42,650 nucleotides of DNA from an uncultured Muribaculaceae bacterium. GTDB taxonomy: Bacteria > Bacillota_I > Bacilli_A > RF39 > UBA660. The notes below the pieces were generated by a model. That model had not been told where the DNA came from and did not search any database. It was given only the letters and a program-made list of their open reading frames with translations. This document shows positions 2,799 through 41,602 of the stretch, piece after piece (position 1 is the first letter of the stretch; the number at the start of each line of letters is the position of its first letter). The stretch lies in NCBI GenBank assembly GCA_964369245.1, contig CAYJEL010000002.1, positions 1 through 42,650 on the forward strand. Direction: 5' to 3'. The position numbers and the translations under genes were made by a program.

Positions 2799-2808
2799 TT
2801 CTTTTTTT
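2738..2808 (+). repeat. 71-bp direct repeat, copy A (last ~19 codons of whiA, its stop and its terminator)
   Basis: Base-for-base identical to 3368-3438 (period 630 bp). The flanking bases differ: c/t on the left, c/g on the right. Confidence 0.95.
2773..2808 (+). terminator. Intrinsic terminator of whiA
   Basis: Stem AAGAACTA (2773-2780) pairs with TAGTTCTT (2796-2803) around a 15-nt loop, followed by a T-run to 2808. The whiA stop TAG lies in the descending stem. Confidence 0.6.
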
Positions 2809-2880
2809 CATTGTAGTTGTTTGTATTTATTTGATTATTGTCAAGTAATTATGTATAATATTTTAAAAGGAGGTGTCTTT

Positions 2881-3366
2881 ATGGCAAAGGTAATATTAAT
2901 TTGTGGTAAAATATGTAGTGGTAAAACTTATTATGTTAAACATAACTTGAAGAGTTTCAAAGCAGTTTCTTTATCATGTGATGAATTAGATAATATGGTT
3001 TTTCATAAATCTTTAACTGATACTCATGATGCAGTTTTTAAAGACGTACATAAGTATTTTCACAAAAAAACTGTGGAAATCGTTAATTTAGGTTGTAATG
3101 TAGTTTTGGATTGGGGATTTTGGCTATCTGAACAAAGGAAAGAAGTTACCAAGTATTATAAAGATAACAATATTCAATTTGAATGGCATTACATTGATAT
3201 TAATGATGAACAGTGGATGAAAAATATTGCAACTAGAAATGAATTGATTGAATTGGGAAAATCTGATGATTATTTTGTTGATGAAGGATTATATAATAAA
3301 GTAAATAAACTATTTGATATTCCAACAAGAGAGGAAATTGATATTTGGTATAGAAGTGAAAACTAG
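2881..3366 (+). CDS. Small P-loop NTPase / putative kinase (AAA_33 or zeta-toxin-like fold)
   Basis: Walker A GKICSGKT near the N-terminus and a hydrophobic strand plus Asp (VVLDWGF). RBS AAAGGAGG lies 7 nt before the ATG at 2881. The 2782 ORF start was rejected because it overlaps whiA and lacks an RBS. Confidence 0.6.
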   Translation: MAKVILICGKICSGKTYYVKHNLKSFKAVSLSCDELDNMVFHKSLTDTHDAVFKDVHKYFHKKTVEIVNLGCNVVLDWGFWLSEQRKEVTKYYKDNNIQFEWHYIDINDEQWMKNIATRNELIELGKSDDYFVDEGLYNKVNKLFDIPTREEIDIWYRSEN

Positions 3367-3367
3367 T

Positions 3368-3438
3368 TAAATCTGGTATATACCACAGATTTAAAAAAAT
3401 TAAAGAACTATATGAGAGAATCAAGTAGTTCTTTTTTT
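3368..3438 (+). repeat. 71-bp direct repeat, copy B
   Basis: Identical to 2738-2808. Begins 1 nt after the stop of the P-loop gene. Confidence 0.95.
3403..3438 (+). terminator. Duplicated copy of the whiA terminator, now terminating the inserted P-loop gene
   Basis: Same hairpin and T-run as 2773-2808, carried within repeat copy B. Confidence 0.55.
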
Positions 3439-3527
3439 GATTTTTTTTAAAAATATGGTATAATTAATAATTGTCTAGTGACTTTATATTTTTATAAATT
3501 TATAGTATAATTAATATGGGTGAAAAT

Positions 3528-6290: not shown

Positions 6291-7861
6291 AAAAAAATAT
6301 AATTATTAGTTTATTTTTAGGACTTATGTTATTTTTTGTTAGTTTTGATTATGGTAAATCGTTATATCCTAATGAATTTTATAATGTTTTTTTAGATGAT
6401 AAACTACTTGGTACAATTTATTCGGAAGAGGAATTGTATAAATATATTGAAGAAAAAACTGATATATATGTAAATGCTGGAACAATTAGTAGAAATTTTT
6501 GTCCTATAGATGATGAAGCTTTGGAATTAATGGAAAATAATCCTTATGAAAAATATAAAAGTAATGGTGTTGATTGTGTTCGTATTGATTTGGAAGATGA
6601 AAGAAAAATTGAGGATGTTTATAATCCTGATGGTTTAACAGTTGAAAAGGTTTTAACTTATGATGTTGATTTATCTAATGTTGAAGAAGTTTATAACTCA
6701 ATGGTTGATATAAAATCATTTAATGTTAAGGGATATCAATTTATTATTCGTGATGAAGAAACTGATATGGTTATTAATGTTTTAGATAAAGATATATTTG
6801 AAACTTCTATTAATGAGATTATCCAAACTTATGTAGGTAGTAATGAATATGAAGCTTATTTAAGTGATAATCAAGTAAAAATAGAAGCTACAGGAAATAT
6901 GATAGAAAATGTTTATATTTCTGAAAACATAACTTTTATTGAAAAAAATATTGCTGTTTCGGAAAGAATTTTTATGGATTCTGATGCTTTATCTCAATAT
7001 TTATTATTTGGTGATAATCCGGTTACTTCAACTTATACAGTAAAAGAAAATGAAGAAGTAGAAACAATAGCTTTTAATAATAAAATATCTATTCAGGAAT
7101 TTTTGATATCAAATCCTAAGTATCAGGATGAGAATGCTTTAATAGGAACTGGAACTATTGTTCAAATTAAAGAAACTAGTCCTAAAATATCTGTTGTTAG
7201 TGAAGAGTTTGAAGTATTTGATAAAGTGAGTGAATATCAAACAGTATATCAATATGATGATACGCAATTGGTAACTTATATAGAAACTATTCAAGATGGT
7301 AGTGATGGATTAGAAAGAATTTCTCAGAGAGTTCAAAAAATAAATGGTAATATTACTTTCGTTGAGCCTGTTTCTAAAGAAGTTTTAAAAGCAACTGTTA
7401 ATGAAATTATTGTTAAAGGTGAAAAAGAAGTTCCTAATGTTGGGTATTTAGATACATGGGCTTGGCCTACTGCATCTGGATGGATTTTGACTCAAGATTA
7501 TGAGTGGAGAATTAATCCTTTATATGGCTATCGTGAATTCCATAGAGCTTTAGATATTGCTGGTACTGGTTATGGTTCTCCAATATATGCTATTAATAAT
7601 GGTACTATTATAACTAAAGAGTATCGTAGTGATTATGGGTATATGATTGTAATAGATCATAATAATGGTTATTATAGTTCTTATTCACATTTAAATGGTT
7701 ATGCTGCTAATATTAATTTAGGTGATACTGTTTCATATGGGCAATTAATTGCTTATATGGGAAGTACTGGATGGTCAACTGGTCCCCATTTACACTTTGA
7801 AGTATGGTATGGATGTGCTAGTAGTAGTAGTTGTCATATCAATCCGTGGTTGATATATTAA
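6287..7861 (+). CDS. Membrane-anchored M23 (LytM-type) peptidoglycan endopeptidase
   Basis: N-terminal TM segment and a C-terminal M23 domain with the canonical HRALDIAG ... SHLNG ... GPHLHFEVW motifs. ATGA overlap with dnaB. Confidence 0.85.
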   Translation: MKKNIIISLFLGLMLFFVSFDYGKSLYPNEFYNVFLDDKLLGTIYSEEELYKYIEEKTDIYVNAGTISRNFCPIDDEALELMENNPYEKYKSNGVDCVRIDLEDERKIEDVYNPDGLTVEKVLTYDVDLSNVEEVYNSMVDIKSFNVKGYQFIIRDEETDMVINVLDKDIFETSINEIIQTYVGSNEYEAYLSDNQVKIEATGNMIENVYISENITFIEKNIAVSERIFMDSDALSQYLLFGDNPVTSTYTVKENEEVETIAFNNKISIQEFLISNPKYQDENALIGTGTIVQIKETSPKISVVSEEFEVFDKVSEYQTVYQYDDTQLVTYIETIQDGSDGLERISQRVQKINGNITFVEPVSKEVLKATVNEIIVKGEKEVPNVGYLDTWAWPTASGWILTQDYEWRINPLYGYREFHRALDIAGTGYGSPIYAINNGTIITKEYRSDYGYMIVIDHNNGYYSSYSHLNGYAANINLGDTVSYGQLIAYMGSTGWSTGPHLHFEVWYGCASSSSCHINPWLIY

Positions 7862-18113: not shown

Positions 18114-19118
18114 GTGGATAAAAAAGATTTAGAATTAAAAATCAAAATTGGAAAATTGAATTATTTTATTGAGTTATTTGATAGAGAAAGAGATGATTTG
18201 ATTAAGGCAACTGAGGTTTTTAAAGTTTATAATACCCCTCGTAAATTTATTTTAGCTTATAAGTCTATTATAGATTTTGGTAAAGAAAATCCTTTGTTAA
18301 AAGATAAAATACCTTCTATTATTGATATATATGAAGAATTATTGAAGTTTGAAAAAAATGGTATATATAAAGATAACTTTGCTATTTTAAAAAATAAACC
18401 TAAGACATATGAATATTATTCAGAAGTTATGAAACATTATCTAAAAGATAATATTAGTTATAATAGTTTTATTTTTTATGATAAATTAAATATAAATAAA
18501 TCTATATTCAATTCAGCTGTTAGAAATATTAAAGTGAAGGATACTGAACTTTATAATTTGTATTTATCAAAAGTTGAAGAAAATAAAGAAAAAAAATATA
18601 AAAAAGCTATTTTTGATTTTAGTGAAATAGCTAAAGGAATTAAAACTGGATTCTTATCTAATGATGAAGTATTTGATTTATGTATGTTTTGGAAATTAGT
18701 GCCATTCAAGTATAGTGATGGATTAAAAAATGATTTTTTAGATTTTAAAAAATTTAATAATAAAATTTTGTTTTCTAGTGGTTCATTTTATAAACAGGTT
18801 AGTAGCTTTGTTAGAGCAACTTTGCCAGATGATTGTGATGTAGTTTTAAATTATATGAAGGAAAATAAGTTATTTAATTATATTTATATTAGTTTATCTA
18901 ATTTTAGGTTTGATTCTAATTGTTGTATTTTTTATGGTAAAAATGAGGTTTTTTATAATGAAGTATTTAGTTTAAATGAAGATGAAGTCGTTTTAATACT
19001 TAATTATTTAAAAGATAACGATTTACCTCCTTTATTATCTATATTTAAAATTATGTACATTAAATATATAAATGGTGAGATTGACTTTAGTGTTAAAAAA
19101 ATTGAATTAAAAAAATAA
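18114..19118 (+). CDS. Hypothetical protein (334 aa, no recognisable domain)
   Basis: Long ORF with a GTG start 5 nt after a GAGGGA RBS. No TM or signal sequence and no motif I recognise. Confidence 0.6.
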   Translation: MDKKDLELKIKIGKLNYFIELFDRERDDLIKATEVFKVYNTPRKFILAYKSIIDFGKENPLLKDKIPSIIDIYEELLKFEKNGIYKDNFAILKNKPKTYEYYSEVMKHYLKDNISYNSFIFYDKLNINKSIFNSAVRNIKVKDTELYNLYLSKVEENKEKKYKKAIFDFSEIAKGIKTGFLSNDEVFDLCMFWKLVPFKYSDGLKNDFLDFKKFNNKILFSSGSFYKQVSSFVRATLPDDCDVVLNYMKENKLFNYIYISLSNFRFDSNCCIFYGKNEVFYNEVFSLNEDEVVLILNYLKDNDLPPLLSIFKIMYIKYINGEIDFSVKKIELKK

Positions 19119-19610: not shown

Positions 19611-20765
19611 ATGAAAAAAAATGGATTCACTTTAATAGAGCTTTTAGCAGTAATTATTATACTAGCTATTGTTGCTTTAATAGCAACTCCAATTATACTA
19701 AATGTAATAGAGGATTCAAGAAAATCGGCTAATAAATCACAGATTGAATTATTATTAGGAGGTTTGGAGCAATTATATGCAAGTAATATGCTAAGTGAAA
19801 ATTTAGAGTTAAGTGAAAAAATCAATAATGAAGAAGATGTTTACGATTTAATTCCGACAACAAATGAAAAACCGGCTAATGGTTTTGGAAAAATAAACAA
19901 TGAAGGAAAAGTAGCTATAGCAGTAGAAATAGACAGAGTATGCTATTCTAAAAACTTCGATGATAGTGAATTGAAGATTTATGAATTACTTGACGGAGAT
20001 AATTGTATATTGCCACCTGGTGTAGGAGAATATTTATATCAGTGTAGGTATTATCAATTTTGGAAAGATGAGGCAAATCCTGAAAGTGATTTTCTTTTTG
20101 ATAAATTAACGGGAAAAATTTTAAGCTATATAGGGACAGACACTGAAGTGATTATACCTTGTGAATATGATGGTGTTCCGGTTGAAGTTATAGGAAATCA
20201 TACTAATATCGGTGCTTTTTATGGTAAGAATGTTACTTCAGTAATTATACCGGATTCTATATATAAGATTGAAAATAGCGCTTTTAGAGAATCGAAGTTA
20301 ATAAGTATTATAATACCTAATAGTGTTACGACAATAGAACATAGTGCTTTTTATGGAATTGAAAGTTTGATTAATATAGATTTAGGAGATGGGGTAGAAT
20401 TTTTAGGGAATAGTTCTTTAGAAAAAACCTCTGTAGTTGAATTAACTTTACCAGCTTCTCTTAAAACATTAGAAGCTCAAGGTTGGATGGATGACTTAAA
20501 AATTTTAATTATTGAAGAGGGGAAGTTAACATATTTACCTAGAGATAGCTTTTGGATTTCTCCTAAAACTACTTATTATGAAAAAGTAGTAATTCCTTCT
20601 AATATTACTAGTATACATGAAGCAGCATTTAAAGAGATTAGTGATGGTTGGGGATTAAAGTCAGAAGTAATAGTTTTTACCAATTCTGATAAATTAAGAA
20701 ATGTTGAAGGAGATTTGGGAACTGATTGGTACTATGATGTGAAAAAGTTTGAATTTGAACCATAG
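19611..20765 (+). CDS. Prepilin-type N-terminal domain protein fused to BspA-type leucine-rich repeats (modular type IV pilin-like)
   Basis: MKKNG/FTLIELLAVIIILAIVALIATP is a class III signal peptide (G-1, E+5). The C-terminal half carries LRR_5-like repeats (IIPDSIYKIENSAFRES.., IIPNSVTTIEHSAFYG.., VIPSNITSIHEAAFKE). RBS AGAGGTG. Confidence 0.75.
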   Translation: MKKNGFTLIELLAVIIILAIVALIATPIILNVIEDSRKSANKSQIELLLGGLEQLYASNMLSENLELSEKINNEEDVYDLIPTTNEKPANGFGKINNEGKVAIAVEIDRVCYSKNFDDSELKIYELLDGDNCILPPGVGEYLYQCRYYQFWKDEANPESDFLFDKLTGKILSYIGTDTEVIIPCEYDGVPVEVIGNHTNIGAFYGKNVTSVIIPDSIYKIENSAFRESKLISIIIPNSVTTIEHSAFYGIESLINIDLGDGVEFLGNSSLEKTSVVELTLPASLKTLEAQGWMDDLKILIIEEGKLTYLPRDSFWISPKTTYYEKVVIPSNITSIHEAAFKEISDGWGLKSEVIVFTNSDKLRNVEGDLGTDWYYDVKKFEFEP

Positions 20766-23608: not shown

Positions 23609-24643
23609 ATGAAGAAAGCGTTTACTTTAGTGGAATTACTTGCAATCATTGTTATATTAGGTGTTATTGCAATAGTTAGTATTCCAGCTATAAATGATAT
23701 GTTAGAAAGTCAAAAGGAAGATGAATACGATAAGTTTGTTAAAGACTTGTATTTAGTGGCAGAAAATTACGTAACTATAGAAAGTAGTATTAAAGCTAAC
23801 TTAAATAAAAATGATAATATTTTTATAAATATTGGTGATTTAATAAATGAAGGTTATATTACTCACGAGATTGTTAATCCAAAAACAGAGGAAGTAATTG
23901 ATAGTTCTGATACTATTAAAGTGATTAAAAATGATGATAATAGTTTATCATTTGAGTATTATGATTTTGATATTACAACTGATGCTTATCCACAAAATGG
24001 ACTTGTATTACACTTAGATGGATATACTAAACCAGATAATAATGTTTGGACAGATTTAAGTGGTAATGGTAATGCTGTATTAAATAATATAGCTAGTGAC
24101 GCATGGGATGGAAATTCAATTACTTTTGATGGGGTTAATGATTATGCTATTATTAGTGGTTTTGGAAGTAATATTACTGAATCAATGAGTGTAGTAGTAA
24201 CTTTTAAAGGTTTAAAAAATAATATATGGGGTTCTGGAATTTTAGGTTCTAATCATACAAGTCAAGGTCGTTTATATATTTCAGGTGGAGATAAGTTTGG
24301 TTTTAATTTTACTACTCCTTCTATTGATGCATGGACAACTACCTCAACTGTTATAACTCCTAATAATATATATAATAATGTTACGGTATTTGATCGTACT
24401 ACTAACAATAATAATATTATTTATGTTAATGGAGAGAGTGTTTATAGTGATACTAGGGGACTTGATGTTACTTGGAATGTTGGAGATTTAACTATTGGAA
24501 AAGCATTTGGAATAAATAGTTATTTATCTAATCATCCATATAATAATTCTTCTGTATATGATGTATTAATATATGATAGAGTTTTAAGTGAGGAAGAAGT
24601 TAAATCTATATATACTATAAGTAGTACTAGAATTGGAGAATAA
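23609..24643 (+). CDS. Prepilin-type N-terminal domain protein fused to a LamG/concanavalin-A-like lectin domain (modular type IV pilin-like)
   Basis: MKKA/FTLVELLAIIVILGVIAIVSIPA has E+5 but Ala rather than Gly at -1. The C-terminal ~200 aa look like Laminin_G_3 (LVLHLDG.., WTDLSGNGN.., ITFDGVNDYAII, ..VLIYDRVLSEEEV). Confidence 0.75.
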   Translation: MKKAFTLVELLAIIVILGVIAIVSIPAINDMLESQKEDEYDKFVKDLYLVAENYVTIESSIKANLNKNDNIFINIGDLINEGYITHEIVNPKTEEVIDSSDTIKVIKNDDNSLSFEYYDFDITTDAYPQNGLVLHLDGYTKPDNNVWTDLSGNGNAVLNNIASDAWDGNSITFDGVNDYAIISGFGSNITESMSVVVTFKGLKNNIWGSGILGSNHTSQGRLYISGGDKFGFNFTTPSIDAWTTTSTVITPNNIYNNVTVFDRTTNNNNIIYVNGESVYSDTRGLDVTWNVGDLTIGKAFGINSYLSNHPYNNSSVYDVLIYDRVLSEEEVKSIYTISSTRIGE

Positions 24644-27314: not shown

Positions 27315-28157
27315 ATGTTAAAAAGAATTGTAAATATATTATTATTTGGTAGTTTAGTTTTAGTATTATTAATTATGTTTTTTTTCGTAACTAATTATAA
27401 CTTAGTTAGTGAGAATAATTTAAATAAATATATTAAAGATGCTGATATTTTAAATATAAAGGCTAGTTATATTTTAAATGTTAGTGATGATATTACTGTA
27501 ATTGAAAAGTTAGAGAATATGGCTTTAGAGTTAAATATCCCTGAGGAAATTATTGTAGATATTTTAGATAGTGAAGAGTTAAAATTTTTATTGGTTGAGT
27601 ATTTTGAAAGAAGTTTGAATTCTTATTATGATGATGTTACTATATCTCAAAATACTATTGATAAGATGATTGATTCGGCTCATATTTCTAGTATGGATCA
27701 TTTGAGTGTTGTCATTAGTGATGAAGAATTGGAATATTTAATTATTGAATATTGTAATAATATTCAGCAGTTGATGCCTGAAAAATTAGAAGTAATTGGT
27801 AATTCTACTATTTTAAAAGTATGGAATTATACATTTGATTATAGTTTTGTGAATTATATATTAATTATTTTAGTTTTAATTGTTATTGTTACATTAATTA
27901 ATAAAGATTTTAAAATATCTATAAAGTATATAGGTTTGGGGATGTTAATTTCTGGAGTTATATATGTATTATTAGGTTCTTTAGATAATGTCATTAATAC
28001 TTATTTAACTAATGAGCTGGATGGAATTAAAGTTATTTTATCGCCTTTAATAACACAATTAACTACTATTTGGTTCCAAACAGGTTTCTTATTATCCTTT
28101 TCCGGGGTCTTTATATATTTAATATTTGTATTTATAAAAAGAATTGAAGCTAAGTAA
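27315..28157 (+). CDS. Hypothetical polytopic membrane protein
   Basis: N-terminal TM, an acidic extracytoplasmic middle region and 3-4 C-terminal TM segments. No motif recognised. Confidence 0.55.
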   Translation: MLKRIVNILLFGSLVLVLLIMFFFVTNYNLVSENNLNKYIKDADILNIKASYILNVSDDITVIEKLENMALELNIPEEIIVDILDSEELKFLLVEYFERSLNSYYDDVTISQNTIDKMIDSAHISSMDHLSVVISDEELEYLIIEYCNNIQQLMPEKLEVIGNSTILKVWNYTFDYSFVNYILIILVLIVIVTLINKDFKISIKYIGLGMLISGVIYVLLGSLDNVINTYLTNELDGIKVILSPLITQLTTIWFQTGFLLSFSGVFIYLIFVFIKRIEAK

Positions 28158-29244: not shown

Positions 29245-30319
29245 ATGGAAAGTAATGAGATTATAAATATATATAATAATTATGATAAACGATTAAAAGA
29301 ACTTGGGAGGTTACTTTGAAGTTGATTTAAAAAATAGTCGAATTCTTGAGTTAGAAAATATTATTAATGATGTGTCATTTTGGTCTAATCAAGATAGGAA
29401 AGTTATCGATGAATTAAGTGATTTAAAAAGAACTTTATCAAATTATAAAAATTTAGAAAATAGTTTAGATTTAGAACTTTTAAATTATTTGGAAGATGAA
29501 GAGGTCAAAAGTTTATTAATTTCTGAGGTTTATGAGATTGAGAATAAAATCAATGAGTTAGAAATTGAAATTTTATTAAATGGTGAATATGATAAGGGTG
29601 ATGCTATTTTAGAAATTCATCCTGGAGCTGGTGGTACTGAAAGTTGTGACTGGGCTTTAATGTTATATCGTATGTATACTAGATGGTGTGAGGATAAAAA
29701 TTATAATTATGATATTTTGGATTATCAAAAAGGTGATGAGGCAGGAATCAAATCTGTATCTATTCTTGTTCATGGTATAAATTGTTTTGGATATTTAAAA
29801 AATGAAAAAGGTGTTCATAGGCTAGTTCGTATATCTCCTTTTGATTCTAATTCGAGAAGACACACTTCATTTGCTTCGGTTGAGGTTATACCGTATATTG
29901 ATAGTAAAACTGTTGTACTTGATATAAAAGATGTTGATTTAAAAATTGATGTTTATAGAAGTAGTGGTGCGGGAGGTCAAAGTGTTAATACGACTGATTC
30001 AGCTGTACGTATAACTCATTTACCAACAAAAACTGTTGTTACTTGTCAAAATGAAAGAAGTCAGATCAAAAATAAGGAAAAAGCAATGGAAATACTTTTA
30101 AATAAGTTATACTTATTGGAAGAAGAAAAAAAACAAAAAGAGTTGAATGATTTAAAAGGTGTTCAAACTGAAATTAATTTTGGTTCACAGATTAGAAGTT
30201 ATGTAATGCATCCTTATTCTATGGTTAAGGATCATCGTACTGGAGCTGAAACTAGTAATGTTTTAAAAGTATTAGATGGTGATATAGATTTATTTATAAA
30301 TAAAAGTTTGAAAGGTTAG
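29245..30319 (+). CDS. prfB: Peptide chain release factor 2 (programmed +1 frameshift at 29314-29320)
   Basis: Frame 0 runs ATG 29245 ... GGGAGG TTA CTT TGA, with the in-frame stop at 29317-29319. The +1 frame continues GAA GTT GAT... to 30319. The SD-like GGGAGG lies 3 nt before CTT. The RF2 SPF and GGQ motifs are present downstream. Confidence 0.9.
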
Positions 30320-30322
30320 TGT

Positions 30323-31183
30323 ATGAAGGTATTAAAAAAAGATGTTTTTAAAGTTGATAAACATAGTTTATTTGACTTTGCTATTTTATTGTTAGGTGCT
30401 ACTATAATGGCTTTGGCATTTAATATATTTTTTATAACAAATGAAATTGTTGTAGGTTTTAGTGGGTTGTCTGTAGTTGCTAATCAATTATGGGGAATAA
30501 AACCTTCAGTTTTTATGGCTTGTGGTTATGCTATATTAATAGTATTAAGTTTGATTATTCTAGGATGGAAATCAACCCGCAGATCAGTGATTGGAAGTAT
30601 TTTATATCCTTTATTGGTTGAAGTAACTTCTTATTTAGCAGCTTATATAGTATTCAAAGATGTTGAAGTAATTTTATTAGTTTTATTTGGGGCTGTTGCT
30701 ATGGGATTTGGTTCTGGGCTTGTTTATAAAGTTAATTATTCAACTGGGGGAAGTGATATTATAAATCAAATCATTTCTAAATTTATTAAAAGACCTATTG
30801 GTTATAGTATGATATTATCAAATTGTTTTATTATAAGTGTTGGTTTTTTCACATTTGGATTTAATTCAGTTATTTATTCTTTATTGGCTGTTTATGTTAT
30901 GAGTATAGTGGTTGACAAAGTTATGATAGGAATTTCTGAATCTAAGAATTTTAGAATTATTACTGAATGTGAAACTGAAGTTAAAAAGTTTTTAATTAGT
31001 AGTTTAAGTCATGGTGTAACTGTTACTGAAGGACGTGGTGGTTATACTGGTAATGTTGTTAAAATAATTATGTGTGTTATTCCTACTAAGGAATATATGG
31101 TGGTAAAAGAAGGTATATTGAAAATTGATAAAAATGCTTTAATTTTGGTATCTGATGTTTATGAAGTAGTTGGAAATAAATAA
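30323..31183 (+). CDS. YitT family membrane protein (DUF2179 C-terminal domain)
   Basis: Five or six TM segments plus the C-terminal GVTVTEGRGGYTG motif. Confidence 0.8.
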   Translation: MKVLKKDVFKVDKHSLFDFAILLLGATIMALAFNIFFITNEIVVGFSGLSVVANQLWGIKPSVFMACGYAILIVLSLIILGWKSTRRSVIGSILYPLLVEVTSYLAAYIVFKDVEVILLVLFGAVAMGFGSGLVYKVNYSTGGSDIINQIISKFIKRPIGYSMILSNCFIISVGFFTFGFNSVIYSLLAVYVMSIVVDKVMIGISESKNFRIITECETEVKKFLISSLSHGVTVTEGRGGYTGNVVKIIMCVIPTKEYMVVKEGILKIDKNALILVSDVYEVVGNK

Positions 31184-31196
31184 AAGGGGTGAGGAT

Positions 31197-31892
31197 ATGA
31201 GTTTAATTCAAGTTAAGAATGTTAAAAAGACTTATAAAACTGGTGTGACAGCAGTTCATGATATGAGTTTAAGTATAAATAAAGGAGAATTTGTTTTTAT
31301 AATTGGTTCCACTGGATGTGGTAAATCAACTTTAATAAAAATGTTATATCGTGAGGAAAAACCTACATCTGGAATTATTAATATTGGAGGAATCAATGTT
31401 GGTAAATTAAGAAATTCTAAAGTATTTAAGATAAGAAGAAAAATTGGAGTAGTGTTTCAAGATTTTAAATTATTATCTAAGTCAACTGCTTATGAGAATG
31501 TAGCTTTTGCTTTAGAGATATTTGGTTTACCTAAATCGGAAATACATGCTAAAGTTGTAAAAGCGCTAGATTTGGTAGGTCTTAAAAATAAATCGAAAAG
31601 TTATCCAAATCAACTATCTGGTGGTGAACAACAAAGGGTTGCGATAGCAAGAGCAATTGTAAATGGACCAAAATTATTAATATGTGATGAGCCTACAGGT
31701 AACTTAGATGAAAATACTAGTATGGAAATAATGAAGGTTTTGGATGAAATTAGTAAATTGGGAACAACAATTATAATGGTTACTCATGATAAGGATATTG
31801 TTAATAAAATGAAAAAAAGAGTTATTTTATTAGATTCTGGACGTATTGTTAAGGATTTTTCAGAAGGGGAGTATAGCAATGAAAGTATTTAG
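31197..31892 (+). CDS. ftsE: Cell division ATP-binding protein FtsE
   Basis: Walker A GSTGCGKST, signature LSGGEQQRVAIARA and Walker B LLICDEPTGNLD. The ATG at 31197 follows RBS AAGGGGTGAGGA. Confidence 0.92.
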   Translation: MSLIQVKNVKKTYKTGVTAVHDMSLSINKGEFVFIIGSTGCGKSTLIKMLYREEKPTSGIINIGGINVGKLRNSKVFKIRRKIGVVFQDFKLLSKSTAYENVAFALEIFGLPKSEIHAKVVKALDLVGLKNKSKSYPNQLSGGEQQRVAIARAIVNGPKLLICDEPTGNLDENTSMEIMKVLDEISKLGTTIIMVTHDKDIVNKMKKRVILLDSGRIVKDFSEGEYSNESI

Positions 31893-32781
31893 GATTTTAT
31901 TTAGAAATATAAGAGATTCTTTCAAAAGTATTTTTAGGAATTTTTCATTGTCTTTAGCTTCGTTAATTAGTATTATAATTACTTTATTAGTTGTTGCATT
32001 ATCAATTATTTTATCTTTAAATATAAATAATTTTACTAGAGAAGTTGAAAAAGATTTAACTATTGTTGTTTTTTTAGATGCTGATGTTAGTTTAGAAAGA
32101 ATAGATGAAATAGATGATGAGATTAAATTATTAAATAATATTTCTAGTTATGAATTTATTGATAAAATGCAAGTTCGTGATGAAATGATGGCTAGTAGTG
32201 AAGCTTATGAAAGTTTATTAGCTAAGTATGAAACAAGAGAAGAAAATCCTTTATCTGATTCTTATAATGTTAAAGTTGTTGATGTTAATAGTTTAGAAAG
32301 TGTTGCTTTAGAATTAATGGAAATTGATGATGTTATAAGTGTTAAATATGGAGAGGGATTAATTGAACAACTTATTTCTGTATTTACTACTATCAGAACT
32401 GTTAGTTTATGGGTTGTTGTTTCATTAGTAGCAGTTACAGCATTTTTAATTACTAATACTATTAAAATAACTATTTTTTCAAGAAAAAGGGAAATTGAAA
32501 TTATGCGTTTAGTTGGTGCTTCTAATATAAATATTAAAATTCCATTTATTTTAGAAGGTTTATTTATTGGTTTATTTGGATCTATTATTCCAATAATAGC
32601 TACAATAATTGGTTATGAAAAATTTTATGTAGCATTTAGTCTACAAGATATTTCACCTTTTATAAAATTGTTAGAACCAATGCCATTTTCTTTAATGGTA
32701 TCAGGAATATTACTAGTTATAGGAGTATTTGTTGGTATGATTGGATCATGGTTAGCGGTAAGAAAACACTTAAAAGTTTAG
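31879..32781 (+). CDS. ftsX: Cell division permease-like protein FtsX
   Basis: TM1, a ~110-aa extracellular loop domain, then three C-terminal TM segments. Overlaps ftsE by 14 nt. Confidence 0.88.
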   Translation: MKVFRILFRNIRDSFKSIFRNFSLSLASLISIIITLLVVALSIILSLNINNFTREVEKDLTIVVFLDADVSLERIDEIDDEIKLLNNISSYEFIDKMQVRDEMMASSEAYESLLAKYETREENPLSDSYNVKVVDVNSLESVALELMEIDDVISVKYGEGLIEQLISVFTTIRTVSLWVVVSLVAVTAFLITNTIKITIFSRKREIEIMRLVGASNINIKIPFILEGLFIGLFGSIIPIIATIIGYEKFYVAFSLQDISPFIKLLEPMPFSLMVSGILLVIGVFVGMIGSWLAVRKHLKV

Positions 32782-32793: not shown

Positions 32794-34044
32794 ATGGATA
32801 TTTGTAATAATCCAGATGTTTTATCTATATTTTATATTATTACAACGTTTGTTGAAATAGCTATGTTTGCAGCACCTGTTATTTTAATTATTTTGATTAT
32901 GATTGATTTAATTAAAGGTATAGCAGGTGATCCTGATAAAATGAAAAGTACTAGAAAAAATATCATAACTAGAATTATAGCTGTTGTTATTTTGTTATTA
33001 GTACCTTTAACTATTGAGTTTTCACAAGGTTTAATGGGAGAAACAGAATTAGAGTATTTACAATGTTTTACGAATGCTAATATAGATGAGATAAATGATA
33101 TTAGATATTCACAAGCAGAGGAAGCTTTAGCTTTAGCGGAAAGTAAACAAACTAGATATTATTATGATGCGGCTTCTTTATTGGTAGCTAAAATAACTGA
33201 TAGTGATGATAAGGATGATTTTACTAATCGTTTGGAAACTTTAAATAATATTATCACTTCTATTGAACAAGGTAAATTAAAACCTTTCACATCTGAAGAT
33301 TTAATTTTTGGTAATACTGGAAATGTTGGTGGAACTGGTAGTTTAACTGTTTCTGGTTATTATACTGATGGTAAAGCTTCTGGGTGTACTGGTGGAGGAG
33401 CTTTGTATACCAAACAACCAGATCCTGCGATAGCAATTAATTATTGGGATGAACAAGGTTTACTTGATGCGTCTGATTTTATTTATCCGGAAGCAACGGA
33501 TGGGACATCTTTAGGAGCTTGGCCAGCTAATTTTAGAGAAATACCTGAACAACTTACAAATATGACTTTTTATAATGGAAATATTATTTGGCCGGTTGAA
33601 CCTTTAAATGGTATAGTTGCAGGTAATTATGGTCATAATGGACCTGAATATGGTTATGATATTACCACTGAAATGGGAGCACCAGTATATGCGCCTGCAT
33701 CCGGAACTCTAGTTTACTCAGAATGGGGAAATACAACTTATAGGAGGTGTCAAGATACAGCTTATTCAGTAAGGATTGAACTTGATACTCCTGTACAAAT
33801 CGATGATGTTTATGTTGAATATATTTTTATAACTCATTTAATGGGAATTGTACAACATTGTCCAAGAAGTACTTGTGAAACTCAAGTAAAAGTAGGTCAA
33901 TTAATCGGATTTGCTGGACATGCAAATGAGCCACATTTACATTTAACTTTTTATGATAAAAATATAAAACGCGGTGTGAATAGTGACTTTTTTGACACTT
34001 TTTATAATACTGATCAAGGTCTTGAAAAAGGAGTTGGTCAATAA
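32794..34044 (+). CDS. Membrane-anchored M23/LytM-domain peptidase paralog 1 (2-TM hairpin, helical stalk, M23 domain)
   Basis: Two N-terminal TM helices flank a K/R-rich loop, followed by a helical region. The C-terminal M23 motifs are HNGPEYGYD, GAPVYAPASG, FITHLMG and PHLHLTFY. Starts 12 nt after ftsX. Confidence 0.8.
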   Translation: MDICNNPDVLSIFYIITTFVEIAMFAAPVILIILIMIDLIKGIAGDPDKMKSTRKNIITRIIAVVILLLVPLTIEFSQGLMGETELEYLQCFTNANIDEINDIRYSQAEEALALAESKQTRYYYDAASLLVAKITDSDDKDDFTNRLETLNNIITSIEQGKLKPFTSEDLIFGNTGNVGGTGSLTVSGYYTDGKASGCTGGGALYTKQPDPAIAINYWDEQGLLDASDFIYPEATDGTSLGAWPANFREIPEQLTNMTFYNGNIIWPVEPLNGIVAGNYGHNGPEYGYDITTEMGAPVYAPASGTLVYSEWGNTTYRRCQDTAYSVRIELDTPVQIDDVYVEYIFITHLMGIVQHCPRSTCETQVKVGQLIGFAGHANEPHLHLTFYDKNIKRGVNSDFFDTFYNTDQGLEKGVGQ

Positions 34045-34712
34045 TGGATAAAAAAATTAAATTAATGTTGATAGTGTTAGGTGTATTTGTTGTAATAGTT
34101 TTATCTTTGTCTTTTATTGGTTCTCTTTATAATAGAGATGTTAAATATTATAAAAATATTTCTGATATAGTTATTGGAATGTATAGAAGTCCTGAGTATG
34201 ATAATTCTGGTATTTCAAAAGAAGATAAAAAGTATTTAGAAAGTTACTTAGCAACATTAACTCATGAAAATCATATTGTTGATTTAAGTAAGTTTATGGA
34301 AGGTGCGGATAGTACTAGTGCTTCTAATTCTCCTAATGTTTTTATAGAAAATAATAAGTGTTTTATAAAATATGATGATTTAAATTTTGTATATGAATAT
34401 AACGATGAAGAAGATTTCGAACAAGGACATAATCATGGAACTTCTGATCAGTTAATAATACTTAATTGTATGGGCAAAGAGCTTTTGATTAATAATTATG
34501 ACTTTTATCCTGAGTATAATGAGACTTTAGAAAATCCGTTGTATGATTACAATTTTATTGGTTATACTGAAGAAGATAATATATTTAATTCTTTTTATAG
34601 ATCAATTTATAACGGTTCTACTGTTATATTAGAAATTAAGTTAAATAATAATGATATTGAAAGTATAGAAGTTAGGCCTGTAAATATTAATAATTATGAA
34701 ATAATAAATTAA
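34044..34712 (+). CDS. Partner protein 1: N-terminally anchored extracytoplasmic protein of unrecognised family
   Basis: TAATG overlap with paralog 1. One N-terminal TM. Motifs shared with the other two partners: YYKNIS, YL.TLTHEN, PEY.ETLENP..DY..IGY and FYRSIY. Confidence 0.75.
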   Translation: MDKKIKLMLIVLGVFVVIVLSLSFIGSLYNRDVKYYKNISDIVIGMYRSPEYDNSGISKEDKKYLESYLATLTHENHIVDLSKFMEGADSTSASNSPNVFIENNKCFIKYDDLNFVYEYNDEEDFEQGHNHGTSDQLIILNCMGKELLINNYDFYPEYNETLENPLYDYNFIGYTEEDNIFNSFYRSIYNGSTVILEIKLNNNDIESIEVRPVNINNYEIIN

Positions 34713-34723
34713 GGAGTGTGTTT

Positions 34724-35983
34724 ATGGAAATCTGTAATAATCCAGATGTTTTATCTATATTTTATATAATTACAACGTTTGTTGAAATAGCTATGTTTGC
34801 AGCACCTGTTATTTTAATTATTTTGATTATGATTGATTTAATTAAAGGTATAGCAGGTGATCCTGATAAAATGAAAAGTACTAGAAAGAATATTATAACT
34901 AGAATTATAGCGGTTGTAATATTGTTGTTAGTACCATTAACTATTGAGTTCTCGCAGAATTTAATGGGAGAAACAGAATTAGAGTATTTACAATGTTTTA
35001 CGAATGCGAATATAGATGAGATAAATGATATTAGATATTCACTAGCAGAGGAAGCTTTATCTTTAGCTGAAAGTAAACAAACGAGATATTATTATGATGC
35101 TGCTTCTTTATTAGTAGCTAAAATAACTGATAGTGATGATAAGGATGATTTTACTAATCGTTTGGAAACTTTAAATAATATTATAACTTCTATTGAAAAT
35201 GATAAGTTGAAGCCTTTTACTTCTGAAGATTTAATTTTTGGTAATACTGGTAATGTCGGTGGTGAAGGTAGTTTAGATGTTGTGGGTTATGGAAGTGATG
35301 GTAAAGATTATGGTTGTACTAGTGGTGGACAATTAAGTTCTGAACCTGATCCGTCACAAGTTATTAATTACTGGGATAGTAAAGGAATGTTAGATGCAGA
35401 TGATTATATTTACCCAGCTGTTAATGGAGAGCTTTATGGTGCATGGCCTGCAAATTATAAAGAATATCCATCACAATTAACTAATGTTAAAACATATAAT
35501 GGTTTAAGTTATCCAATAACTTCTGATTATCATGGTACAGAAGGGAAGTACCAATTCGTATATCAACACAATGGAATTGATTTTATGTCTTCAATTGGAA
35601 CACCTGTTTATTCACCAGTTGATGGTACTTTAGAATACTCTGAGTGGGGACATACAACATATCGTGGGTGTGATGAAAATGCTTATTCTATTACTATTAA
35701 TATGGATGAATCTGTAACTTTTAATGGCTATACTTTTGATACGGTGTTTTTAACTCATTTAAGTGGAATAGTTTTTAGATGTTCAAGAAATGAGTGTAAT
35801 CAAGAAATTAAAGCTGGTCAATTGATTGGATTTGTTGGTAATGCTGTTGGTGGTTTTGGAGGTTATGCTCCACATTTACATATGACTTTATATGGTGGAA
35901 GTTATAGTTCTGGGTTGAAATCTACTGTTATTGAAAATTTATATGATATAACTTCTGGTGATATTAGGATGGCTGGTGAATAA
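34724..35983 (+). CDS. Membrane-anchored M23/LytM-domain peptidase paralog 2
   Basis: The N-terminal ~178 aa are nearly identical to paralog 1. The divergent M23 domain has the canonical HNGID, then GTPVYSPVDG, LTHLSG and PHLHMTLY. The ATG at 34724 lies 7 nt after AAGGAG. Confidence 0.8.
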   Translation: MEICNNPDVLSIFYIITTFVEIAMFAAPVILIILIMIDLIKGIAGDPDKMKSTRKNIITRIIAVVILLLVPLTIEFSQNLMGETELEYLQCFTNANIDEINDIRYSLAEEALSLAESKQTRYYYDAASLLVAKITDSDDKDDFTNRLETLNNIITSIENDKLKPFTSEDLIFGNTGNVGGEGSLDVVGYGSDGKDYGCTSGGQLSSEPDPSQVINYWDSKGMLDADDYIYPAVNGELYGAWPANYKEYPSQLTNVKTYNGLSYPITSDYHGTEGKYQFVYQHNGIDFMSSIGTPVYSPVDGTLEYSEWGHTTYRGCDENAYSITINMDESVTFNGYTFDTVFLTHLSGIVFRCSRNECNQEIKAGQLIGFVGNAVGGFGGYAPHLHMTLYGGSYSSGLKSTVIENLYDITSGDIRMAGE

Positions 35984-36624
35984 TGGAAAAAAATATTAAA
36001 AGACTTTTAATTGCGTTTGGTATTGTTGTTTTAATATTAGTTATTTTGTTATTGTTAAATTTTGTTTACAAAAGAGATGAAAAGTATTATAAAAATATAT
36101 CTGAGGTAGTTATTTCATTATTTGATAGTAGTGATTATTCTACATCAGGTATCAATAAAAGTGATATTATTAAAATAGATGAGTATTTATCAACTTTAAC
36201 ACATGAAAATGAGTTAGTTAATTTAAATAAGTTTATTGATGATAATACTGATTATAATAAAAATTGGAATAATTCAGAGGGAGTTATTGTTGAGAATAAT
36301 GTGTGTTATATTTATTATGGTGATATTGATTTTAAGTTGATAGAAGATGTGACAGTAGAAAATTCAGCTGTTATATATTGTGATGGTTATCAAATTAAAA
36401 TTTATGAAGATAGCTTTATGCCAGAATATTCGGAAACTTTAGAAAATCCTGTTCATGATTATGTTTATATTGGATATAATTTTACTTTAGATAATTACAT
36501 TGGTTTTTATCGTTCTATATATGATGGTAGTGAGATTGGTGTTTTTATTAATTTAAGTGATACTGAAATAGATGTTATTGAAGTTAATGGTGTTAATTTT
36601 AATGATTATAATATTATAAAATAA
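35983..36624 (+). CDS. Partner protein 2
   Basis: TAATG overlap with paralog 2. Same architecture and motifs as partners 1 and 3, but it is the most divergent of the three. Confidence 0.75.
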   Translation: MEKNIKRLLIAFGIVVLILVILLLLNFVYKRDEKYYKNISEVVISLFDSSDYSTSGINKSDIIKIDEYLSTLTHENELVNLNKFIDDNTDYNKNWNNSEGVIVENNVCYIYYGDIDFKLIEDVTVENSAVIYCDGYQIKIYEDSFMPEYSETLENPVHDYVYIGYNFTLDNYIGFYRSIYDGSEIGVFINLSDTEIDVIEVNGVNFNDYNIIK

Positions 36625-36635
36625 GGGGTGTATGT

Positions 36636-37973
36636 ATGAGTATTTGTTCTGATCCAGATGTGTTATCAATATTTTATATCATAACAGCATTTGTTAATAT
36701 TGCTATGTTTGTAGCTCCTGTTTTATTAATTGTTTTAACTATGGTTGATTTAATAAAAGGTATTAGTGGTGATGAAAGCAAGTTAAAAAATATTAGAAAA
36801 TCTATAATTACTAGAATTGTAGCTTTAGTAATTTTATTGTTAGTTCCTTTAACAATTGAATTTTCTCAAGGCTTAATGGGGGATAATGAATTAGAATATT
36901 TGAAGTGTTTTACTGATGCTAATGCTGATGACATAGGTGATATAAGATATGATTTAGCTGAAGATGCTTTATTGGATGCTGAATTAAAGCAAAATAGATA
37001 TTATTATGATAAAGCATCATTATTAGTAGCTAAAGTTACTGATAAAGATGATAAAGAAGAATTGGAAGAAAGATTAGATGAGTTAGATAATATTATAACT
37101 CAAATTGAACAAGGTAAATTACCTCAAATTACTACTGATGATTTAGCTTTTGATGGTTTGGGAGCTCCTTCTAAGCATTATTCTAATTTAGCTAATAAAA
37201 ATGCTGCTGTTTGTGTAGCTGGAACTGAATATGAATATGCTCCACAGCCTGATTTAGCTTTAAATTTTTGGGAAGGTGGAAAAAGCGTTACTGAATGGCA
37301 TGGAGATGCATGGGTAGTTGATTCTGAAGACTATTATTATCCTGCTACAGCTCAAGGTGTTTCTTTAGGAGCATGGCCTAAAATTGATGATTATCCTTTA
37401 CAGTTGGAAAATCCTAAAATTTATTTTGATAATTTCATTTGGCCTGTTGATACTGCTGGAGGTTATAGTGGGAATTATGTTCATAATGGACCTGAATATG
37501 GTATGGATATTTTGACTTATATGGGAACTCCAGTATATGCTCCTGCTAGTGGAGTTTTGGAATATTCTGAATATGGTCATACTGGTCTTATTGATTGTCA
37601 AGATACAGCTTATAGTGTTAGAATTAGATTAGATGAACCTGTACGATTTAATGGAGTAGTTGATCCAAATCCTAATAATGAAACTTATGATCCACCGGTA
37701 AATGTTGATATTGAGGTAATATTTATTACACATTTAATGGGTATTCGTTATTATTGTCCTGAGGATAGTTGTTATATGCGTGTTGAAGCTGGTGAGTTGA
37801 TTGGATTTAGTGGAACTGCGGGAGGAATTAGTTCTGAAACAGGTAAACCACGATTTGCACCACATTTACATATGACTTTTTATGATGATATTATCGTTAA
37901 TGGGGTAGCTAGTTTTGATTTTAATCATATTTATAGCATTGATGAGGGCGATAAAAGAATGGCTGGTGAATAA
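36636..37973 (+). CDS. Membrane-anchored M23/LytM-domain peptidase paralog 3
   Basis: Same architecture. The N-terminal module is roughly 75% identical to paralogs 1 and 2. The M23 core is closest to paralog 1 (HNGPEYGMD, GTPVYAPASG, CQDTAYSVRI, FITHLMG, PHLHMTFY). Confidence 0.8.
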   Translation: MSICSDPDVLSIFYIITAFVNIAMFVAPVLLIVLTMVDLIKGISGDESKLKNIRKSIITRIVALVILLLVPLTIEFSQGLMGDNELEYLKCFTDANADDIGDIRYDLAEDALLDAELKQNRYYYDKASLLVAKVTDKDDKEELEERLDELDNIITQIEQGKLPQITTDDLAFDGLGAPSKHYSNLANKNAAVCVAGTEYEYAPQPDLALNFWEGGKSVTEWHGDAWVVDSEDYYYPATAQGVSLGAWPKIDDYPLQLENPKIYFDNFIWPVDTAGGYSGNYVHNGPEYGMDILTYMGTPVYAPASGVLEYSEYGHTGLIDCQDTAYSVRIRLDEPVRFNGVVDPNPNNETYDPPVNVDIEVIFITHLMGIRYYCPEDSCYMRVEAGELIGFSGTAGGISSETGKPRFAPHLHMTFYDDIIVNGVASFDFNHIYSIDEGDKRMAGE

Positions 37974-38620
37974 TGAAAAAGAAAGTTATTATAGGTGGTA
38001 TATCTTTTATTGTAGTAATGTTTTTAATTATTAGTATTAATAACATTTTAAAAAGAGATGTGAATTATTATACTAATATAAGTGATGTTGTAATAAGTAT
38101 GTATAGAAGTCCTGATTATGACAAAAGTGGAATATCTAAAGAAGATAAATTATACTTAGATAAATATTTATCAACTTTGACTCATGAAAATCATGTTGTT
38201 GATTTAACTGAATTTATTGATTATTCAAAAAATACTTCTAAAGCAAATTCAGATTATGTTTTTGTTGAAGATGGAGTTTGTAAAATTGATTATAACAATT
38301 TAGATTTGGTTAATGAAACGTATAAAAATGATTCTCTCCATGAAACTACTGATAAGATAATTGTTCTATATTGTAATGGTAAGGTAATATATATTGATAA
38401 TTTTGTTTTTGAACCTGATTATGAGATAACTAAAAATAATCCTTTTTATGATTATGCTTATGTAGGTTATGCTGAGGAAGGTAGTAGTTTTTTAGGTTTT
38501 TATCGTTCTTTATATGATTTTAGTACGGTGAGAGTTAAAATAGATGTTGATTATGATGGTAATATTGAGAATATAGATGTAAAACCTGTAGATTTTTATG
38601 ATTATGAAATTATTAAATGA
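37973..38620 (+). CDS. Partner protein 3
   Basis: TAATG overlap with paralog 3. Closest to partner 1 (MYRSP.YD.SGISKEDK.YL..YL.TLTHENH.VDL). Confidence 0.75.
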   Translation: MKKKVIIGGISFIVVMFLIISINNILKRDVNYYTNISDVVISMYRSPDYDKSGISKEDKLYLDKYLSTLTHENHVVDLTEFIDYSKNTSKANSDYVFVEDGVCKIDYNNLDLVNETYKNDSLHETTDKIIVLYCNGKVIYIDNFVFEPDYEITKNNPFYDYAYVGYAEEGSSFLGFYRSLYDFSTVRVKIDVDYDGNIENIDVKPVDFYDYEIIK

Positions 38621-38680: not shown

Positions 38681-38709
38681 ATGACAAGCAAAAAAATGTT
38701 TGCTATAAT
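38681..38709 (+). promoter_or_regulatory. Putative promoter of recG
   Basis: ATGACA (38681-38686), a 17-nt spacer ending in TGc, then TATAAT (38704-38709), i.e. an extended -10. Confidence 0.45.
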
Positions 38710-40698: not shown

Positions 40699-40782
40699 TG
40701 CGTAGGATCTACGCTTGAATTTATCACGATATAAATGTGATTTAATTCAACCCCCAGATGTGGAGCTTTTAGCTCCTTTTTT
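40699..40782 (+). ncRNA. Candidate small RNA (~85 nt, three hairpins, unpaired C5 tract)
   Basis: Lies between the promoter above and the terminator below. Hairpin 1 is GCGTAG-gat-CTACGC (40700-40714). Hairpin 2 is TTGAAT..ATCAC-gatataaat-GTGAT..ATTCAA (40715-40750). A single-stranded CCCCC follows (40751-40755), then the terminator hairpin. There is no ORF and no downstream + strand gene. Confidence 0.4.
40762..40782 (+). terminator. Intrinsic terminator
   Basis: GGAGCT-ttt-AGCTCC followed by T6. The T-run overlaps the stop codon of the convergent - strand gene. Confidence 0.65.
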
Positions 40783-41602
40783 ATTTGATAAAAGAATCAA
40801 AGTCTTCTAGGGTATCTATGGTATTTGGATTTTTAAAGAAACGGTGAATTTTTTCAGATTTCTTTGAAGTTTTTTTAATATCGCTCGTTAGTAGTTTAGT
40901 TATTTTTAATTCATTAATATAATAGTTTATTTTTTCTTTGCATATTTCAATTAAATTTGCTTCTTGTTTTGATATTTCTTTTTTTTGTTGGGTAATATAT
41001 ATATAATCTAATAATCTTATAATTTCAGTTGTATTAAAAATGTTTTGATATTTATCCAATTCTTGTATTAATGTTTTTAAATCGCATGAAAAAAATAGTT
41101 GTTGCATTAAGTTTATTCCAATTATAAATTCTAGCTTTCTTGTTATATCTTTAAAATAGTTTTTTTCTTCTTTTTTAAAAACGTGTTGTTCGATTAAACT
41201 TTTATATCCATAGGTTAATGCTTGTCCTATATTTTCATTATTCTTTTGGGTAAATCCTTCAAAGTCTTTATAATTATAGTTCATTTCAATCATTTCTCTG
41301 ATTAAAGTAGGTTTTTGTTTTTGTTTTTCTAAGTTGTAATCTAAAATTTCATAAGATATTGTTGGAAATTTGTATGAAATATGGTTTTTAAATACTTCAT
41401 AATTTTTATCACTTATTGTTTTTGTAATGGTAGGTTTATTTTGTATTTTTAAAGTTGCTTTTGTCTTAGTTTTAAAATCTTTGTTAATTTTATATTTGTT
41501 TAATATTTTTTTGCTTATATTTGTAATTGTATATAGGCCTATGCAAGTTGTACTTAAGATGATTACTGAGTTTTCATATGATAAAAAATCCTTAATAGTC
41601 AT
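40781..41602 (-). CDS. Hypothetical protein (273 aa, one N-terminal TM)
   Basis: Long ORF with a strong RBS (AAGGAGA 7 nt upstream on the - strand). Lys-rich. No recognisable motif. Confidence 0.6.
   Translation of the reverse strand: MTIKDFLSYENSVIILSTTCIGLYTITNISKKILNKYKINKDFKTKTKATLKIQNKPTITKTISDKNYEVFKNHISYKFPTISYEILDYNLEKQKQKPTLIREMIEMNYNYKDFEGFTQKNNENIGQALTYGYKSLIEQHVFKKEEKNYFKDITRKLEFIIGINLMQQLFFSCDLKTLIQELDKYQNIFNTTEIIRLLDYIYITQQKKEISKQEANLIEICKEKINYYINELKITKLLTSDIKKTSKKSEKIHRFFKNPNTIDTLEDFDSFIK

Follow-up and report, generated by a model that had tools for sequence, protein, structure and literature searches.

Do hydrolase genes that lie directly behind ftsEX belong to the FtsEX machinery? 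The question is raised by a stretch of 42,650 nucleotides from an uncultured bacterium of the GTDB lineage RF39, UBA660 (contig CAYJEL010000002.1 of assembly GCA_964369245.1; this whole stretch is called the window), in which ftsX is followed by three tandem gene pairs. We call the hydrolase gene of each pair A and its partner gene B, and number the copies A1-B1, A2-B2 and A3-B3. The best reading, to which we give a probability of about 0.55, is that A is a self-anchored autolysin related to components of conjugative type IV secretion systems (T4SSs), that B is a partner serving the constant module of A, and that the pair was triplicated here in a lineage-specific manner.

As the original prediction stated, the three pairs are collinear and follow the end of ftsX (32781), with spacers of 12, 11 and 11 nt if A2 starts at the ATG at 34724. 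A Shine-Dalgarno sequence is present in every spacer, and each B start codon falls on the stop codon of its A gene in a TAATG overlap, which suggests translational coupling of B to A. The features of the locus are as follows.

31170-31892, forward strand: ftsE (Pfam ABC_tran, 7e-38)
31846-32781, forward strand: ftsX (Pfam FtsX_ECD, 4e-14; FtsX, 1e-11)
32794-34044, forward strand: A1, 416 aa; hairpin, stalk, linker and M23 domain, with the HxxxD motif split by a GPEY insertion
34044-34712, forward strand: B1, 222 aa; N-terminal membrane anchor and predicted extracytoplasmic alpha+beta domain with two conserved Cys
34724-35983 (ATG start, 419 aa) or from 34718 (GTG start, 421 aa), forward strand: A2, with canonical HNGID and HLH motifs
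35983-36624, forward strand: B2, 213 aa
36636-37973, forward strand: A3, 445 aa; GPEY insertion as in A1 and an additional loop in the M23 domain
37973-38620, forward strand: B3, 215 aa
34027-34041, 35966-35980 and 37956-37970: C-terminal tails of A1, A2 and A3, of the form ...[KR]xxAG[EGQN]
38681-38709, forward strand: recG promoter-like site, ATGACA-17-TATAAT with TG; motif kept after ftsX in relatives and marking the downstream edge of the array

The anatomy first proposed for A, a hairpin of two transmembrane (TM) helices with both termini outside followed by a stalk, a linker and an M23 domain, is borne out. In A1 the pilin-like hairpin occupies residues 1-79, a three-helix stalk residues 85-158, a Gly-rich linker residues 160-205, and a pre-domain with the M23 domain residues 205-416. 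The hairpin loop is basic: six Lys or Arg lie between residues 41 and 60, against none among residues 1-10, and by the positive-inside rule this places both ends of the hairpin outside. After the hairpin, an AlphaFold2 (AF2) model of A1 contains three short helices (97-118, 121-131 and 137-158). Across 23 A-family proteins the only invariant residues are C4, P71 and C91. Given the invariance of both cysteines, which flank the hairpin, C4 and C91 probably form a disulfide outside the membrane that clamps it.

Both halves of A have relatives among conjugative T4SS components, a kinship that did not appear in the original account of A. The hairpin matches the Pfam family T4SS_pilin (PF18895) with 19.7-20.4 bits, under the gathering cutoff of 26.6; a match at E ≤ 0.01 was obtained for 10 of the 23 A proteins (best 2.2e-5), and there is a weak hairpin match to the NCBIfam Mbov_0395 pilin-like conjugal transfer family. 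PF18895 has been used as a VirB2-like profile in work describing tandem diversified VirB2-like arrays in Patescibacteria (10.1101/2025.01.22.634366). A hidden Markov model (HMM) of the N-terminal module of A (AN) matched four tandem small open reading frames (ORFs) in a T4SS cluster, L007, at 1e-13 to 1e-16. This cluster encodes a VirB4-type ATPase and TrbL_4 (VirB6-like), PrgI_like and TraC-like proteins. The aligned modules have in common the motif P.xL...MxDLxKAV..EDEIKK...FxKRLIAA..VFFV, a Cys before helix 1 and C..CF.N after helix 2. For the catalytic half, a 717-aa hydrolase of the T4SS cluster (P0010), encoded directly 3' of the VirB4-type ATPase gene, shares 38% identity with A3 across 62% of its length. 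The nearest relatives of both halves of A thus lie in T4SS clusters of monoderm bacteria and, judged by these matches, the A-B module has common ancestry with T4SS components.

A second T4SS element of the same type is carried by a Bacilli metagenome-assembled genome (MAG) from rabbit gut (L024; VirB4 fragment 94% identical). There, a second large hydrolase-like protein (581 aa, 1769-3514) follows the M23 enzyme, and the L007 counterpart of these two pieces is fused as the one 717-aa protein. Neither the window nor any chromosomal A-B locus contains VirB4, VirB6, type IV coupling protein or relaxase genes. When PLSDB plasmids were searched by tblastn with B, the N-module and a T4SS-cluster pilin-like protein, no match was found, and the M23 half of A2 gave weak matches to three Rhodococcus plasmid M23 genes only.

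By Pfam and by predicted fold, the C-terminal domain of A1 is an M23 peptidase. The Pfam M23 profile (PF01551; cutoff 28.7 bits) gives A1 33.3, A2 37.4 and A3 28.5 bits, the last just under the cutoff, and Foldseek with the A1 C-terminal domain retrieves LytM (4e-6), StM23, lysostaphin, EnpA, zoocin A and the LytM domain of EnvC, at 4e-6 to 3e-4. The claim that the catalytic motifs are kept throughout stands in part. The HxH motif (HLH) and the middle His (THL) are intact in all three copies; the metal-binding HxxxD is canonical (HNGID) in A2 alone and reads HNGPEYGYD in A1 and A3, split by the four-residue GPEY insertion. This insertion was found in no other homologue in alignments of the A family, and its segment has a predicted local distance difference test score (pLDDT) below 50 in the model. 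One A homologue (L020, 9947-11281) has an M23 domain without metal ligands, the His of HxxxD being gone, HLH replaced by SVR and THL by SNL. It retains its B partner, and the pair can thus persist without M23 catalysis. The C-terminal tail ...[KR]xxAG[EGQN] is conserved in nearly all A proteins and in the T4SS-encoded hydrolases. Few homologues of A3 were found among the 5.8 billion proteins searched. An M23 protein in a phage-tail-like context (P0012), which matched in the catalytic domain only (1.9e-5), and two Neisseria loci (L026 and L027) with generic M23 matches were set aside.

Scanning of GTDB species representatives for the pair yielded 17 loci, from gut MAGs labelled 'Bacilli bacterium'; one of the genomes with A and B, Candidatus Faecisoma merdavium, belongs to GTDB order RF39, family CAG-822 (PMC8035907). 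Among cassettes with a readable downstream gene, a B-family gene stands directly after A in 22, the three window copies included, from about 17 genomes. The sole exception is a hybrid cassette after dnaE (L023, 6796-8684), in which an A gene with pilin-like module and M23 domain is followed by a T4SS-type lipoprotein gene in the partner slot (hhalign probability 99.1 and BLASTP 4e-18 against the T4SS-cluster lipoprotein). Three genomes have two cassettes, in which the second A combines the same N-module with another catalytic domain. In L012 and L016 this is NlpC/P60; in L025 it is Peptidase_C39_2. An A of the C39_2 type also precedes the closest B outside the window paralogues (P0015, L028). 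The originally noted pattern of a conserved N-terminus and a variable C-terminus therefore holds across genomes, with one N-module joined to M23, NlpC/P60 or C39_2. The main clades recur in both the AN tree and the B tree.

The settings of the pair are chromosomal. It follows polA in five genomes; ftsK and a small gene in three, where it precedes gyrB/parE- and gyrA/parC-type genes; mscL in three; a CDP-alcohol phosphatidyltransferase gene (possibly pgsA) and a TPR gene in two; and dnaE, obg or a tyrosine-recombinase gene of xerC/D size in one each, while in another genome it precedes pcrA. The 643-647 aa gene 3' of the two-cassette loci is of the gyrB/parE type. The window itself is core chromosome (lgt, whiA, dnaB, tilS, ftsH, ezrA, pgk, tpi). 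Taken together, conserved order and context show A-B to be a two-gene module that is conserved on the chromosomes of uncultured, reduced-genome gut Bacilli (RF39-like). It is not a routinely annotated system, as had been supposed, and our literature search found neither the fusion of hairpin and hydrolase nor the A-B gene pair described. In three further loci (L080 14661-15362, L084 14661-15608 and L087 16022-16723), proteins with a signal peptide, a pilin-like hairpin and a Cys-rich tail, and with neither hydrolase domain nor B gene, fill the slot between polA and serS in which L009 has an A-B pair (polA 68% and serS 76% identical).

B had been described as an anchored extracytoplasmic protein outside any assignable family, and so it remains after searches of Pfam, NCBIfam, PHROGs and the PDB. 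Pfam, NCBIfam and PHROGs gave no match, the PepSY domain included, a profile of 49 B-family members found nothing relevant among PDB sequences, and a word-indexed protein search with B returned its own paralogues alone. When 1.84 billion cluster representatives were searched exhaustively with a profile, a B family of 53 clusters emerged, 93-249 aa in length. Most of these relatives are lipoproteins with an LxGC lipobox (LPAM_1 matches 11 of the 49 members), and a C-terminal TM anchor is common among them. The N-terminal region of B1-B3 contains no Cys and so no lipobox; these copies appear to be signal-anchored. In the AF2 model of B (pLDDT 71), a TM helix and two helices are followed by a curved antiparallel sheet. 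A Foldseek search of this model against the PDB and viral structures gave nothing at E ≤ 0.001, and the one resemblance, to designed or generic NTF2-like proteins, is weak (E ≥ 0.1, TM-score 0.2-0.35). VirB8-like entries are absent from the top 50 matches, and assignment of B as a VirB8-like protein of the PrgL, TraM or TcpC type is not supported. Nor could B be placed in the T4SS-cluster lipoprotein family: hhalign aligned only the signal, the lipobox and some 40 further residues, and homology is not demonstrable.

The three window copies are 58-68% identical in A and 44-48% in B, which marks them as diverged paralogues and not an assembly artefact. They are monophyletic in the AN and B trees, indicating a lineage-specific triplication. 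Divergence is uneven between A1 and A2, with 96% identity in the first 165 residues, 51% in the remainder of A and 45% in B; synonymous codon identity is 0.86 in the N-terminal region and 0.6-0.7 elsewhere. The B tree joins cassette 1 to cassette 3 as its sister, and A1 and A3 both have the GPEY insertion. Set against this kinship of 1 and 3, the near-identical and synonymously similar N-termini of A1 and A2 suggest that the 5' 500 bp of these two genes were probably homogenised by gene conversion.

These data lead to the reading given at the outset. A would be a peptidoglycan hydrolase that anchors itself by a pilin-like membrane hairpin with both ends outside, held by the putative disulfide. 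The short three-helix stalk and the flexible Gly-rich tether would keep the catalytic domain positioned at the wall; this domain is interchangeable, being M23 in the window copies and NlpC/P60 or C39-like in relatives. B, translationally coupled to A and membrane-tethered on the extracytoplasmic side (a lipoprotein in most relatives, signal-anchored here), would exert its effect via the constant hairpin and stalk, helping to assemble, stabilise or regulate A rather than inhibiting the active site; this we infer from the presence of B next to A whichever of three unrelated catalytic folds A carries. Most likely, the module would serve the cell's own wall remodelling in growth, division or sporulation. 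Loss of most lyt/cwl endopeptidases is predicted for the ancestor of RFN20, RF39 and ML615J-28 (PMC10868615), which makes a housekeeping autolysin role plausible.

Several points weigh against this interpretation. The T4SS_pilin score lies below the gathering cutoff and the NCBIfam matches lie far below theirs. Within the window, B (45-49%) has diverged in step with the catalytic half of A (45-51%) rather than with the N-module (70-96%), and pairing of B with the catalytic domain would also fit this pattern. The B model is of moderate confidence only (pLDDT 71) and has no significant fold match. The putative A-B interaction and its proposed site are read from the pairing of the genes, and the proposed housekeeping role leans on gene context and the published gene-loss prediction. 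Finally, the split HxxxD of A1 and A3 and the dead M23 domain in L020 mean that catalysis is not guaranteed.

If the reading is right, what is new is a membrane-anchored autolysin with its partner, derived from T4SS-related parts, and an orphan partner family, B, that is now defined and testable. RF39-like Bacilli are abundant, uncultured gut bacteria, predicted to be thin-walled and to have lost the usual autolysins; for wall opening in these cells, a conserved hydrolase that anchors itself and has a partner of its own is a concrete candidate. Parts of a conjugation machine, the pilin-like hairpin and a T4SS hydrolase, would thus be reused in a chromosomal and apparently housekeeping setting. 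We put forward only tentatively, as possible and on balance doubtful, a wider proposal in which exapted T4SS parts form the main growth or division autolysin system of reduced-genome RF39-like Bacilli that lack LytE/CwlO-type enzymes, with B as a new class of hydrolase-control lipoprotein acting via a pilin-like membrane module. In a bolder version of this proposal, the pilin-like domains may form oligomers, with the enzymes displayed on the resulting filament or channel.

The alternative that survives best is the one suggested by the position of the array. In this model the stalk of A would dock on the extracellular domain of FtsX, and ATP hydrolysis by FtsE would switch the M23 domain on, as for PcsB, CwlO, RipC and EnvC, with B as a co-regulator. 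The array begins 12 nt after ftsX, without room for a promoter of its own, so that co-transcription is likely; the FtsX has an FtsX_ECD domain. Known FtsEX partner hydrolases differ in their catalytic domains, and variability of that domain in A would be in keeping with this. Three relatives have the pair after ftsK, and the lineage is predicted to be without cwl/lyt endopeptidases. Against this, the adjacency is unique to this contig. We searched metagenome contigs with the window FtsX and obtained 80 loci (51-66% identity), 50 of which extend at least 1.5 kb downstream; A or B follows ftsX in none of these 50 and in none among all 80. The four closest contigs have the order HAD-prfB-yitT-ftsE-ftsX-recG, with recG right behind ftsX. 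The recG promoter-like motif GACAAnCAAAAAnATGTTTGnTATAAT stands behind ftsX in the closest contigs and behind B3 in the window, and this, together with the ftsX-recG adjacency in relatives, identifies the 5.8-kb array as a lineage-specific insertion between ftsX and the recG promoter. Conversely, neither ftsE nor ftsX was found within the flanks examined (up to 10 kb) of A-type cassettes in other genomes. The protein itself also argues against the model: A is anchored by its own two TM helices, whereas known partners are secreted and tethered through FtsX, and its modelled stalk consists of three short helices, about 60 aa, against a coiled coil of about 200 aa.

The linkage on which the original prediction of FtsEX-coupled hydrolases relied is therefore found in this genome only. 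In the loci of other genomes the pair is not ftsEX-linked, which goes against coupling, and its contexts are core chromosome. The insertion removes the only evidence for a functional FtsEX link and is not a disproof, as pcsB, cwlO and envC are also unlinked to ftsEX. A link of the A-B pair to ftsEX is thus not supported by these comparisons; we consider FtsEX coupling unlikely, and the tempting claim of a new FtsEX-hydrolase arrangement has been removed as unsupported. Rather, as elsewhere, the cassette lies a few nt behind a housekeeping gene and probably uses its transcript, and its position after ftsEX would represent a transcript to ride on and not evidence of FtsX coupling. The originally proposed single transcript is upheld only in that co-transcription with ftsEX is plausible, and it is so only because intergenic space is absent. 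The supposed lack of promoters and terminators is not decidable by scanning, which is uninformative at 25% GC: 132 promoter-like sites were found against 125 ± 10 expected by chance, and the terminator scan gave a single weak hairpin, inside A3. Upstream in the same gene series, prfB (29246-30319) contains a programmed +1 frameshift site of the classical kind, in which CTT TGA (about 29314-29320) comes after an SD-like GGGAGG, and for this reason an ORF finder gives the downstream frame only, from 29303.

A second alternative casts the pairs as polymorphic effectors that target peptidoglycan, with A delivered to competitors, possibly by a T4SS-like route of which its pilin-like N-terminus would be the hint, and B protecting the producer. 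The constant N-terminus with swapped C-terminal hydrolase domains, the small exported gene directly downstream in every case, and the tandem diversified copies here with gene conversion of the A1/A2 5' 500 bp are all features that it would explain, and the Patescibacteria arrays (10.1101/2025.01.22.634366) offer a parallel for tandem diversification. However, immunity proteins normally co-vary with the toxin domain, and here a single B family stands behind three unrelated catalytic folds, its tree following that of the N-module. That B lies behind A regardless of the catalytic domain argues against a classical immunity protein. Moreover, A is an integral membrane protein, orphan toxin-tip or immunity cassettes were not found, most genomes have a single-copy pair in a housekeeping context, and no chromosomal cassette has a secretion ATPase, relaxase or integrase nearby. 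This analogy, also raised originally, is disfavoured, and we hold it to be very improbable.

Could the pairs instead be sporulation-specific, either an analogue of SpoIIQ-SpoIIIAH or engulfment or cortex hydrolases with a YpeB-like partner? The organism had been called a spore-former, and spo0A, spoIIR and yunB (Spo0A, SpoIIR and YunB) do lie inside the window; in one relative SpoIVA is encoded 7 kb upstream of the pair. As a protein of the LytM type, A is anchored in the membrane and its partner measures about 215 aa, and the LytM domain of L020 is degenerate. Yet the SpoIIQ analogy is without sequence support, since Pfam and NCBIfam gave nothing for the SpoIIQ, SpoIIIAH and PepSY/YpeB families at E ≤ 1 with any A or B. 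The anchor of A is a two-TM hairpin and not a single segment, A and B would share one membrane if co-expressed from a single transcript, NlpC/P60 or C39_2 replaces the catalytic domain in relatives, and the vegetative genes prfB and ftsEX apparently share a transcript with the array. We give a sporulation-specific role slim odds.

We attach equally little credence to a decaying remnant of an integrated conjugative element, or to parts of a still-functional dispersed T4SS: the homology of the N-module and M23 domain to T4SS-cluster proteins, the second such element in a rabbit-gut Bacilli MAG (L024) and the pairing of A with a T4SS-type lipoprotein in L023 would suit such an origin, but all reading frames are intact, at least 17 species-level genomes conserve the pair in strict A-B order, the cassettes are inserted seamlessly after housekeeping genes, and VirB4, VirB6, coupling protein, relaxase and integrase are lacking from the window and the chromosomal loci.

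Other features of the window were also recorded. An unrelated second M23 peptidase of 524 aa (6287-7861), directly 3' of dnaB, has a G5 domain and an M23 domain (5.6e-27), and is a candidate for an ordinary secreted-type wall hydrolase in the same genome. The gene at 19611-20765 encodes a prepilin-type methylation motif (N_methyl) at the N-terminus, fused to BspA-type leucine-rich repeats; L006 and L013 have similar N_methyl proteins close to their A-B pairs. Four ORFs of 273-344 aa without a Pfam match at 1e-5 (18114-19118, 23609-24643, 27315-28157 and 40781-41602, the last on the reverse strand) stand in this otherwise well-annotated core region.

How does the A-B pair compare with known systems? 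Like PcsB, CwlO, RipC and EnvC, A has a helical N-terminal part, a linker and a variable hydrolase or LytM domain, and in this one genome it lies behind ftsEX. In contrast to those secreted, soluble, FtsX-tethered proteins with their long coiled coils, it spans the membrane with two TM helices, the loop between them being basic and cytoplasmic, and its stalk is predicted to be a short helical bundle; the similarity in the order of parts is superficial, and the ftsEX linkage of A-B is not conserved. The constant-N/variable-C pattern is common to polymorphic toxin-immunity systems, in which, unlike B, immunity proteins co-vary with the toxin. Operons that pair a hydrolase with a partner, such as sleB-ypeB or those of LytM factors and their regulators, likewise combine an enzyme with an extracytoplasmic partner tethered to the membrane; there the two are co-transcribed and apparently co-dependent, as A and B may be. 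B has no PepSY or other recognised domain.

The closest parallels are with conjugative T4SSs. Monoderm conjugative systems carry wall hydrolases such as PrgK (pCF10), CwlT (ICEBs1), TraG (pIP501) and TcpG (pCW3), which like A are membrane-anchored, modular peptidoglycan hydrolases. A is anchored by a pilin-like hairpin in place of their single TM segment, and the A-B cassettes lie in the core chromosome with T4SS genes not nearby. The T4SS-cluster hydrolase resembles A further in its M23 half, 38% identical, and in the gene for a lipoprotein of about 220 aa that comes next, as B comes after A, although B has no detectable homology to that lipoprotein beyond the signal/lipobox region. Compared with VirB2/TrbC-type pilin-like proteins (PF18895; Mbov_0395), the hairpin of A scores below the curated cutoffs and is fused to 250-350 aa of stalk and enzyme. 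Nevertheless, it shares with them the two-helix hairpin, the basic loop and the Cys before helix 1 and after helix 2, and it is clearly homologous to the four tandem small proteins of the T4SS cluster.

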